Shown here piece by piece: positions 14,560-15,956 of a stretch of 15,956 nt of DNA (its first letter is position 1; every line of letters begins with the position of its first letter). The DNA lies in IMG/VR virus record IMGVR_UViG_2778261418_000011, positions 1-15,956 of that record; one strand, 5' to 3'. The notes below the pieces were generated by a model, which worked only from the letters and a program-made list of their open reading frames with translations, did not search any database and was not told the origin of the DNA. Both the position numbers and the translations under genes were made by a program. Source of the stretch: a virus (Duplodnaviria > Heunggongvirae > Uroviricota > Caudoviricetes).

Positions 14560-14941
14560 TGCCGCCTCCTCCACCCCGCAGGCGGGAAAACAGGACGGAC
14601 ACCAGCGATGCAATATCCTGTTGGTGGATAAACGACAGAATCTTTACCGACACCACCGATACCAGCACCGCACACAGTGCATCCGCCGATGTACCGTCAT
14701 AACCTGTTTTTGCTGCAATCCAGGCTGACAGCACGCGCGCTCCCAGCACGCCGACAATGAACGACACCAGAAAATGTGCCGCCACCCGCCAGGCTGAAAG
14801 CGCCTGCGGCATCGTTGCCACAAACAACGCTCCGGCGAACGCCCCAAACACAATCCCGAAATCCGTCCCGGTAAACAGTCCGAATACCGTCGCCCCGCCG
14901 AGCGCAGCGGCTGTACCAGAACCGGATAAGGGTTCAGACAT
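14549..14941 (-). CDS. Holin-like membrane protein A (130 aa, several Gly/Ala-rich transmembrane helices)
   Basis: First gene of the lysis cassette, with GGAG 8 nt upstream of the ATG. Its Gly-rich C-terminus (RLRGGGGGNVK) is encoded by the SD of the next gene. Confidence 0.6.
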   Translation of the reverse strand: MSEPLSGSGTAAALGGATVFGLFTGTDFGIVFGAFAGALFVATMPQALSAWRVAAHFLVSFIVGVLGARVLSAWIAAKTGYDGTSADALCAVLVSVVSVKILSFIHQQDIASLVSVLFSRLRGGGGGNVK

Positions 14942-15183
14942 ACTTTTTCTCCTGTAAAGAAAAAAGGGCCACCAGCAGCCCGCAAAAAAACGCCCACCAA
15001 AGGCACCCGCAGATGCCTTTGGTGTGGAGTTATTTGATGTGCGCCGGTCGTGGCGCGAGGAAGTGAAATAAGACTTACCTGAAATTAAGGTTAATCTTAT
15101 GGTTTAAACCATTTTTAATGCTTAGTAATATGAACTCGTCCCCAGAAGGGGCCAATACTTATTCTTCTTCACGGACTTTGTCC

Positions 15184-15215
15184 CGCGGCGTTAATCCGAC
15201 AGCCGCGCTTTTTTT
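15184..15215 (+). terminator. Plus-strand-oriented terminator-like hairpin
   Basis: CGCGGC (15184-15189), 12-nt loop, GCCGCG (15202-15207), then C and T7 (15209-15215). Confidence 0.4.
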
Positions 15216-15250
15216 GCGCCATATTCATCGCTGACTTATATGGCATTGCC

Positions 15251-15286
15251 ACACGGACATTATCAGTGTCCGTGTTTTCTTTTTTT
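15251..15286 (+). terminator. Plus-strand-oriented intrinsic terminator
   Basis: Perfect 9-bp stem ACACGGACA / TGTCCGTGT with a 7-nt loop, followed by TTTCTTTTTTT. Confidence 0.55.
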
Positions 15287-15297
15287 GAATTCAGAAT

Positions 15298-15324
15298 AAA
15301 AAAAACCGCCCAATGGAGGCGGTT
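15298..15324 (-). terminator. Minus-strand intrinsic terminator between the tRNA array and the lysis cassette
   Basis: Minus strand reads AACCGCC-UCCAUUG-GGCGGUU followed by U8 (plus-strand A8 at 15298-15305). Confidence 0.6.
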
Positions 15325-15688
15325 GGTCAATGCATGAGATCAATCATTTTTATTGTAATAGAAATCGAGGTGTCGGGTGCCTCCCGAAATATCCATCCCT
15401 ACAACAGATATTGTGATTCCCCGTTAAACCACTATATAAACCACCCTCGCACTGAGGAACACCTCTGCGGTGCTGTTTACAACACCAGAATGATGCTTCA
15501 CCGACCCTGCCAGGAAATACAAAATCTCCACCGATAATGCATCATTCTGCTGCCGTAAAAATTCAGCACTGAGGCTACACCCGACCTCAAATCATAGCCA
15601 GAGAACAGAATACCATTTAAACACAATCCGCTCCCACGTAATAAAAAATACGCCAGTGCTGTAATACAATAAGGCTTATTACAAATGT

Positions 15689-15763
<75 letters not shown>

Positions 15764-15766
15764 ATA

Positions 15767-15842
<76 letters not shown>

Positions 15843-15844
15843 AC

Positions 15845-15921
15845 TGGACCGCCACCGGGGACTCGAACCTCGCACACTTAACTTAAAGGGTTGACGCTCT
15901 TTCCTGATGAGCTAGTGGCGA
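15845..15921 (-). pseudogene. Degenerate tRNA-like gene (possible decayed tRNA-Arg-like member of the array)
   Basis: A 77-nt cloverleaf can be drawn (acceptor stem with U1-G72, D-arm GCUC/GAGC, T-loop UUCGAGU, encoded CCA). However the anticodon loop is CCUUUAA (C where U33 is normally invariant), and there are A-C mismatches in the anticodon and T stems. Confidence 0.4.
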
Positions 15922-15922
15922 T

Positions 15923-15956
15923 TGGTGGCCCTTGCTGGATTTGAACCAGCGACCTG
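15923..15956 (-). tRNA. tRNA 3' fragment (T-arm and acceptor end; resembles E. coli ileX-type tRNA-Ile2), truncated by the window edge
   Basis: Reverse complement ...GGTCGCTGGTTCAAATCCAGCAAGGGCCACCA gives a T-stem GCUGG/CCAGC, T-loop UUCAAAU, acceptor 3' strand and CCA. The anticodon is outside the window. Confidence 0.5.

Follow-up and report, generated by a model that had tools for sequence, protein, structure and literature searches.

The second gene of the tRNA array lying at the end of the analyzed DNA is, judging by its sequence, a descendant of argN, which stands second in the ileZ-argN-argO array of the lambdoid late region. The DNA in question (hereafter, the window) is the whole 15,956-nt stretch of the IMG/VR record IMGVR_UViG_2778261418_000011, and the positions of the tRNA genes within the array are referred to as slots. 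For slot 2 we observe homology to argN, defects in the anticodon loop and in the stems, a graded loss of the match to the tRNA model, excess diversity and lesions private to the window copy. We consider it probable that slot 2 is a relic of argN evolving under relaxed constraint, still tRNA-shaped, probably still processed and hitch-hiking in a successful prophage, with the window copy having decayed further than its relatives.

Layout and genomic context of the array

The window corresponds to the late region of a lambdoid E. coli prophage. Every gene, including those for the tail tape-measure protein, the head, the terminase and lysis, is on the minus strand. ARAGORN detected three tRNAs in the window, Gly(UCC), Thr(UGU) and 'Lys(UUU)', all on the minus strand. 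Their scores against the Rfam model RF00005 are 65.6, 64.2 and 31.9 bits, respectively (for the last one, E = 0.0024; the gathering score is 29). The array and the features discussed below are as follows.

15923-15956, minus strand: 3'-terminal 34 nt of an ileZ-type tRNA (anticodon CAU, annotated as tRNA-Ile), interrupted by the window end
15922, minus strand: single spacer base A between ileZ and slot 2, read from the sequence
15845-15921, minus strand: slot 2, argN-family tRNA gene with the loop CCUUUAA (C33, anticodon UUU), identified by ARAGORN, RF00005 and homology
15883-15889, minus strand: anticodon loop of slot 2, C32 C33 U34 U35 U36 A37 A38, with C33 at 15888 and the anticodon at 15887-15885
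15879, minus strand: A42 of slot 2, mismatched with C28 (15893) and private to the window by comparison with relatives
15858-15870, minus strand: T arm of slot 2 with the mismatch A51 (15870)·C63 (15858) and the intact T loop UUCGAGU (RF00005)
15767-15842, minus strand: slot 3, tRNA-Thr(UGU), host thrU with one private change, A23C (ARAGORN, RF00005 and comparison with K-12)
15689-15763, minus strand: slot 4, tRNA-Gly(UCC), host glyT with a compensated C6U/G66A pair at 15758/15698 (ARAGORN, RF00005 and comparison with K-12)
15304-15324, minus strand: terminator-like hairpin with a T run after it, located in the array-to-holin gap; kept in ECL27977

Just 1 nt separates ileZ from slot 2, and 2 nt separate slot 2 from Thr. 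The closest complete genome, ECL27977, has an array that is 99.4% identical, embedded in the gene order Q antiterminator, DNA methylase, ileZ, slot 2, Thr, Gly, a gap of ~750 nt and holin; the order in Stx2a_F349 is the same up to slot 2. The 3' end of ileZ present in the window is identical to ileZ of both ECL27977 and Stx2a_F349, and complete ileZ copies in relatives score 72.5 bits with RF00005.

In the window, the gap of ~750 nt between tRNA-Gly and the holin gene (14942-15688, minus strand) contains no convincing gene; Stx and LT-II phages have their toxin genes at this position. Five terminator-like hairpins are present in the region 14900-15956 against 1.2 expected by chance, those with the longest stems being at 15324-15304 (minus), 15251-15275 (plus) and 15024-14995 (minus). 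The gap could be a source of small RNAs; an Rfam search of it returned no family above threshold. Tandem copies of STnc100-family sRNA together with an AgvB/AsxR-type anti-sRNA occur just downstream of the tRNA arrays of related prophages (L010, 2265-3380, and L069, 2558-2809); none of either type was found in the window at the gathering threshold. The best matches to the whole window in complete genomes end inside the array (at 15786, 15843 and 15847), indicating mosaic recombination junctions within or between tRNA genes.

Structure of slot 2

Slot 2 is a 77-nt cloverleaf on the minus strand with an intact T loop and an encoded CCA. An earlier note, made from the sequence alone, had described it in these terms, and both ARAGORN and RF00005 find the tRNA at 15845-15921. 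The acceptor stem (UCGCCAC/GUGGCGG) contains a U1·G72 wobble, and the D arm is intact, with U8, A14, G18, G19 and A20 all present. Mismatches in two stems, also reported in the note, are C28·A42 in the anticodon stem (UCAAC/GUUAA; 15893/15879) and A51·C63 in the T stem (CGAGG/CCCCG; 15870/15858). The T loop is UUCGAGU, and the 3' end consists of the discriminator U73 followed by CCA. With these two non-standard pairs and U1·G72, the gene clears the RF00005 gathering score marginally, as a full-length match (model positions 1-71). All of the conserved tertiary nucleotides and the T loop signature G53-T54-T55-C56-R57-A58 are present in the window copy.

The anticodon loop is CCUUUAA, as originally read. 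It has the 7 nt and the purine at position 37 (A37) of a canonical elongator tRNA around the anticodon UUU, but has C33 (at 15888) in place of U33, the near-universal uridine that makes the anticodon U-turn. Other registers of the anticodon stem, shifted by one base in either direction or with a 9-nt loop, provide neither better pairing nor U33, so that no other register yields a canonical loop. A sequencing or assembly error could be rejected for C33, since the loop is present in hundreds of independent genomes; the occurrence of the same gene at the same position in hundreds of prophages likewise excludes a chance match. Such an error may, on the other hand, lie behind the private A42 of slot 2 or the private A23C of the tRNA-Thr.

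The change G42A weakens the cloverleaf from -20.0 to -13.6 kcal/mol. The cloverleaf of the window copy lies 8.7 kcal/mol above the minimum free energy (MFE), as against a distance of 2.7 in the major allele and of 0-2.1 in canonical ones; these gaps are meaningful only comparatively, as MFE folding alone is not decisive. Neither the window copy nor the major allele has the cloverleaf as its MFE fold, and Stx2 argN and the window tRNA-Thr misfold likewise; even the ileZ cloverleaf is 4.5 kcal/mol above its MFE.

The note had called the gene degenerate and held that a normal, high-scoring call by tRNA scanners would speak against this. Scanners still call a tRNA (Lys), which makes degeneracy a matter of degree.

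Ancestry of slot 2

Alignment to the ileZ/argN/argO arrays, proposed in the earlier note, places slot 2 in the argN slot. It aligns without gaps with argN from the ileZ-argN-argO array of Stx2 phages (loop CUUCGAA) and base for base with the canonical tRNA-Arg(UCU) alleles of prophages, which have CUUCUAA or UUUCUAA as the loop. These canonical alleles occupy the same slot of other four-slot arrays, namely those of strain 720632 (L003) and of the IMG/VR loci L303 and L329. Outside the loop, slot 2 is 91% identical to Arg(UCU) of L303, 86% to that of L003 and 84% to Stx2 argN; the values for host argU and K-12 lysT are 63% and 51%. The proposed derivation from an Arg(UCU)-type tRNA with the loop CUUCUAA is thus well founded. 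In a sensitive BLAST search with the 77-nt slot 2, the family was found in 2127 of 5426 complete E. coli genomes, a number too low for the universal host tRNA-Lys genes to be among the matches. Given also the 51% identity to lysT, an origin from host tRNA-Lys was rejected.

The argN-slot family is evidently a genuine tRNA family, since among 57 distinct alleles five pairs show compensatory changes and 96.7% of cells are paired, far above slid controls, although the percentage is inflated by pre-filtering of the allele set to at most two unpaired pairs.

By its position, directly 3' of ileZ in the late region between Q and the lysis genes, slot 2 belongs to the argN family. Its anticodon does not: A20 is kept, but UUU (U35) is found instead of UCU or UCG with C35, the principal ArgRS identity nucleotide. 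We therefore regard slot 2 as a descendant rather than a functional member of the family. That it might still serve as an arginine tRNA in the manner of argN, in spite of the altered loop, agrees with the Arg-type body and A20, but is hardly conceivable, because C35 has given way to U and a UUU anticodon cannot read Arg codons. Nor is slot 2 an ordinary tRNA-Lys(UUU). Its anticodon has the LysRS identity set U34-U35-U36, but the body does not correspond, being only 51% identical to lysT and carrying U73 rather than A73.

With one genome considered per species (185 579 species), the slot 2 allele was found only in E. coli and Shigella flexneri, which suggests that it is young. Alleles with the loop CAUUUAA (A33) were not counted as an independent second origin of a UUU loop without U33: they have diverged strongly, carry C8, are devoid of CCA and go undetected as tRNAs. 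Possibly they belong, in decayed form, to the same lineage. A search for ileZ, argN and argO within the library of papers covered found nothing.

Taken from its ancestor to the present state, the probable course of events would be the following. The ancestral gene would have had the loop C/U-U-UCU-A-A and read AGA. Two substitutions, C35U and U33C, would have turned this loop into CCUUUAA, the first of them removing the main ArgRS identity base and creating a Lys anticodon, and the second removing the U-turn uridine. The gene would still be co-transcribed with its neighbors in the late transcript, between the Q antiterminator and the lysis genes, and, owing to its intact acceptor stem, T arm and CCA, it probably continues to be excised by RNase P and the 3' trimming enzymes. 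Its decoding is likely poor or abolished, and it probably evolves under relaxed constraint. It would persist mainly by hitch-hiking, as a 77-nt insert with 1-2 nt spacers between maintained tRNAs in a successful prophage lineage.

Graded decay, diversity and dispensability

The RF00005 scores of the family form a descending series: 55.6 bits for canonical Arg(UCU) in slot 2, 53.2 for the allele of locus L010 (loop CUUUUAU), 44.4 for the major CCUUUAA allele, 43.0 for Stx2 argN, 39.6 for slot 2 of ECL27977 and 31.9 for the window copy, the weakest that is detectable. Six further slot 2 alleles went undetected by RF00005 at E ≤ 5. They comprise a 1-nt deletion in the D stem, a U8C/C11U haplotype, CAUUUAA, a scrambled anticodon arm, a deleted anticodon arm and the allele of L196, with a destroyed T loop. 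The neighbors in these same loci score 72.5 (ileZ), 73.8 (Thr) and 65.6 bits (Gly).

Nucleotide diversity is similarly uneven. Across 103 arrays of the CCUUUAA clade, anchored solely on the junction of slots 2 and 3, it amounts to 0.035 per site in slot 2, compared with 0.004 in ileZ and 0.016 in both Thr and Gly, i.e. slot 2 is two to eight times as diverse as the neighboring tRNAs. The unequal maintenance of individual array members, which the earlier note had suspected, is apparent both from these values and from the undetected siblings that stand beside neighbors of 65-74 bits. About 25% of slot 2 copies in the clade carry U8C, while the window copy keeps U8; other copies have D-stem deletions or G18A and are not detected as tRNAs.

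Slot 2 also appears to be dispensable. It is scrambled or deleted, and unpairable in any register, in 40 of the 229 loci that hold the ileZ 3' end, and ARAGORN did not find it in 29 ileZ...argO arrays. Thr-Gly arrays frequently do without any ileZ or slot 2 (91 of 123).

The window copy goes beyond its relatives in having G42A and C1U, and in this respect appears to be past them in decay. A42 is private to it, every relative having G42, and no complete E. coli genome matches the window slot 2 at 100%. Both differences between the window and ECL27977 arrays fall in stems; with a background divergence of ~2% over the whole window, this is statistically unremarkable.

A change in codon usage does not account for the loss. 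In the late genes, 4.5 of every 1000 codons are AGA and 5.0 are AGG, above the E. coli averages of roughly 2 and 1-2. Since these codons are still in use, the Arg function has been lost rather than made redundant.

Decay is not confined to slot 2 everywhere. For the hits from mouse strains M6 to M19 (H63-H67), PGAP annotates only tRNA-Ile and tRNA-Gly across an array that is 94% identical, i.e. slots 2 and 3 are both below the threshold of the caller.

Evidence for possible retention

A number of observations point in the opposite direction. The exact major allele of slot 2 is present in 279 complete E. coli genomes and the CCUUUAA clade as a whole in 798 of 5426 (about 15%), compared with 34 for the canonical Arg(UCU) sister. 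Among 114 gapless four-slot arrays, 99 have the loop CCTTTAA and 11 have CTTCTAA. The sequence C33-UUU-A37-A38 is unchanged in all 103 clade members, with the loop varying only at position 32. This invariance is not significant by itself: at ~0.4 variant alleles per site, it has roughly a 10% chance of occurring. Stem variants that preserve pairs (C4U, C11U and C63U) are frequent, while those that break pairs are present in one to three copies each. Some structural constraint would produce such a pattern, but the argument loses force through linkage. The T loop UUCGAGU is likewise invariant, with no variant alleles at loop positions 55-61 in the clade. Of the two stem mismatches in the window copy of slot 2, A51·C63 is ancestral and shared with Stx2 argN, whereas the sister alleles have U63 and are fully paired; host thrU has an analogous A·C in the T stem one pair along (52-62 rather than 51-63).

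L010 carries the same body with the canonical loop CUUUUAU, U33, perfect stems and a compensated acceptor pair. The L010 array consists of two tRNAs only, and its ileZ shows a compensated change in the anticodon stem (GCGGC...ACCGC versus GCGAC...ATCGC). PGAP labels the better slot 2 copies as tRNA-Lys without a pseudogene flag and leaves the more decayed ones unannotated. Taken one by one, these points are not significant, and linkage together with hitch-hiking could explain them; nevertheless, they keep a functional reading alive, and an allele so widespread and with an invariant loop might have retained a function.

One possible function would depend on shape rather than on decoding. Slot 2 might act as processing punctuation that helps RNase P and 3' exonucleases to free ileZ and Thr, or as a decoy for an anticodon nuclease or a modification enzyme. 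Either role would fit the tight spacers of 1 and 2 nt, the predominance of pair-keeping variants, and the fact that the acceptor stem, the T arm and CCA are the best preserved parts and the T loop is invariant in the clade. As regards the decoy, over-expressed viral tRNAs have been considered as possible inhibitors of the nuclease AriB by competition (PMC12409363). Such a role is hard to reconcile with the 91 of 123 Thr-Gly arrays in which slot 2 is missing and with the ileZ...argO arrays that tolerate a scrambled one. The decoy version is further opposed by the finding that the resistance of a phage tRNA-Thr to OLD is not due to competitive inhibition (PMC12445682). We consider a role of this kind very unlikely, and relaxed constraint remains our preferred explanation.

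Neighboring slots and anticodon switching

Slots 3 and 4 (15689-15842, minus strand) reproduce host thrU and glyT of the tufB operon almost exactly. These two genes are 209 nt apart in K-12, with tyrU in between, while the phage copies are separated by TAT only. Both slots thus look captured from the host and then trimmed. In slot 3, A23C creates the mismatch U12·C23 in the D stem (15831/15820), the one that the earlier note had seen in tRNA-Thr; it is private to the window and accompanies a score of 64.2 bits, against 73.8 for thrU and for the major phage allele. The compensated pair noted in tRNA-Gly is likewise real, consisting of C6U and G66A relative to K-12 glyT, which co-occur in 19 of 97 clade loci.

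Anticodon changes have also taken place in slot 3. UGU was replaced by UUU in seven loci on an unchanged thrU body, always together with A26G (PGAP annotates these genes as tRNA-Lys), and by UCU in phage SerU-LTIIb. The slot 3 switches are located at L003 1115-1190 and L004 1006-1081, and in the IMG/VR loci L154, L173, L189, L191, L216 and L202. They represent anticodon remolding by point mutation within the prophage array.

Other parts of the thrU-like genes vary as well. Roughly one-third of them in 123 IMG/VR loci have U16C in the D loop, with or without U20C; the window has U16. In 4 of the 123 loci, the 3' strand of the anticodon stem, UCAGU, is changed to UCACC or UCAUC, leaving a shorter stem without the CAG (CNG) motif; resistance to P2-OLD has been reported for changes of this type. 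A further sign that single members of the array are inactivated from time to time comes from IMG/VR, where 4 of 116 four-slot arrays show a 1-nt insertion (GTCGGGCACC) within the 3' acceptor strand of their thrU-like gene.

Possible relation to tRNA-cleaving defenses

UUU and UGU match the anticodons of host tRNAs that defense systems cleave. Cleavage of E. coli tRNA-Lys by AriB is abolished by U39A and impaired by A41C and U16C, and phage T5 evades PARIS by means of its own Lys, Thr and Asn tRNAs, infection being rescued by the first two (PMC12409363). Killing by P2-OLD results from cleavage of tRNA-ThrU at CNG motifs within the anticodon stem. Protection is conferred by the tRNA-Thr(UGU) that lambdoid phage 21 encodes, but not by additional host thrU (PMC12445682).

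In this context, slot 2 could be read as a working tRNA that is charged by LysRS via UUU, reads AAA and AAG, and has been selected because its Arg body escapes PARIS AriB or the PrrC/RloC-type nucleases that destroy host tRNA-Lys(UUU). Together with the Thr(UGU) of slot 3, the array would then replace the two prime AriB targets. Having U36-A-A-G-U-U41 (rather than U-A-A-U-C-A) and C16, slot 2 lacks the AriB site. The determinants set out in PMC12409363 are therefore altered next to a UUU anticodon, as one would expect of a replacement tRNA of the T5 tRNA-Lys type. However, the absence of the site was inherited from the Arg body and did not evolve, and in form slot 2 is not a canonical replacement, considering C33, the mismatches and the low score. 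In favor of selection, the CCUUUAA allele is far commoner than its Arg sister, its loop is invariant in the clade, and UUU recurs both as the canonical allele of L010 in the same body and, independently, in slot 3, so that this anticodon may itself be selected; the rescue by T5 tRNAs (PMC12409363) and the action of the phage 21 tRNA-Thr(UGU) against P2-OLD (PMC12445682) provide precedents.

Several features are nonetheless difficult to accommodate in a functional lysine tRNA. These are C33 in place of U33, the discriminator U73 rather than the A73 of tRNA-Lys, the U8C present in ~25% of clade copies, and the D-stem deletions or G18A that leave others undetected as tRNAs. In five arrays where slot 2 is CCUUUAA, slot 3 is a canonical Lys(UUU), an indication that the Lys function does not come from slot 2. 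In the window, slot 2 has the additional C28·A42 mismatch, and slot 3 keeps the anticodon arm of host thrU, including the CUG/CAG motif and the UAAUCA site, as well as U16. Slot 3 of the window should therefore be sensitive to both AriB and OLD, and so would be cleaved. Overall, we judge a working lysine tRNA in slot 2 to be unlikely.

A wider proposal can also be formulated. The CCUUUAA allele would be a selected Arg-bodied tRNA with a Lys anticodon, sustaining AAA decoding or decoying the enzyme when AriB/PrrC-type nucleases destroy host tRNA-Lys(UUU). The array would be a counter-defense cassette that evolves by point switching of anticodons (UCU to UUU in slot 2; UGU to UUU or UCU in slot 3) and that, with slot 3, covers the two prime AriB targets. 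We find this distinctly unlikely. A relic of argN under relaxed constraint, carried along by the prophage, remains the reading that we favor.

Implications

As a decaying gene, slot 2 is a modest but clean case of uneven maintenance inside a phage tRNA array. It also carries a warning for annotation, because many of the 798 complete E. coli genomes with the clade bear the label 'tRNA-Lys' in spite of the Arg body and the missing U33. Of possibly greater importance is the broader pattern: in one and the same prophage array, anticodons are switched by single point mutations, slot 2 passing from Arg to 'Lys' and slot 3 from Thr to either Lys or Arg. UUU and UGU, the anticodons seen here, also belong to the host tRNAs hit by PARIS and P2-OLD, which makes a link between the arrays of temperate phages and tRNA-cleaving defense testable. 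The novelty is modest, since both the family and the phenomenon are known, and what is new is a variant within them.

Comparison with known systems

The closest known counterpart of slot 2 is argN of Stx-converting and other lambdoid prophages. Both immediately follow ileZ, with Q upstream and the toxin or lysis genes downstream, and they share the length, the type of D loop, the T arm including A51·C63, U73 and CCA, with an overall identity of 82-84%. They differ in the loop, which in argN is CUUCGAA (anticodon UCG) with U33 and C35, compared with CCUUUAA in slot 2, and in what follows: the window array continues with thrU-like and glyT-like genes and the Stx argN array with argO. The canonical Arg(UCU) alleles (L003, L303 and L329) belong to the same four-slot array (ileZ, slot 2, Thr or Lys, Gly) and are 86-91% identical outside the loop. 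Unlike slot 2, they have U33, C35 and fully paired stems, score 55.6 bits and are rare (34 versus 798 complete genomes).

In a more general sense, slot 2 resembles tRNA pseudogenes and anticodon-shifted ('remolded') tRNA genes, in which an anticodon point change on the body of another isotype is likewise followed by the accumulation of lesions. In contrast to those, the slot 2 allele predominates in arrays of its type and has a fixed loop.

Two phage tRNAs with counter-defense activity invite comparison as well. Phage T5's anti-PARIS tRNA-Lys(UUU) (PMC11464382, PMC12409363) is, like slot 2, phage-encoded, has a UUU anticodon and differs from host tRNA-Lys at AriB determinants (39, 41 and C16). 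However, it is a genuine Lys tRNA whose loop is canonical and whose function has been demonstrated, whereas slot 2 has an Arg body, C33, U73 and stem mismatches. The tRNA-Thr(UGU) of phage 21, active against P2-OLD (PMC12445682), is a lambdoid tRNA with the same anticodon as slot 3 of the window and demonstrates that lambdoid tRNAs can act as counter-defense. Its resistance requires a shortened anticodon stem and an altered CNG motif, whereas slot 3 of the window keeps the arm of host thrU.
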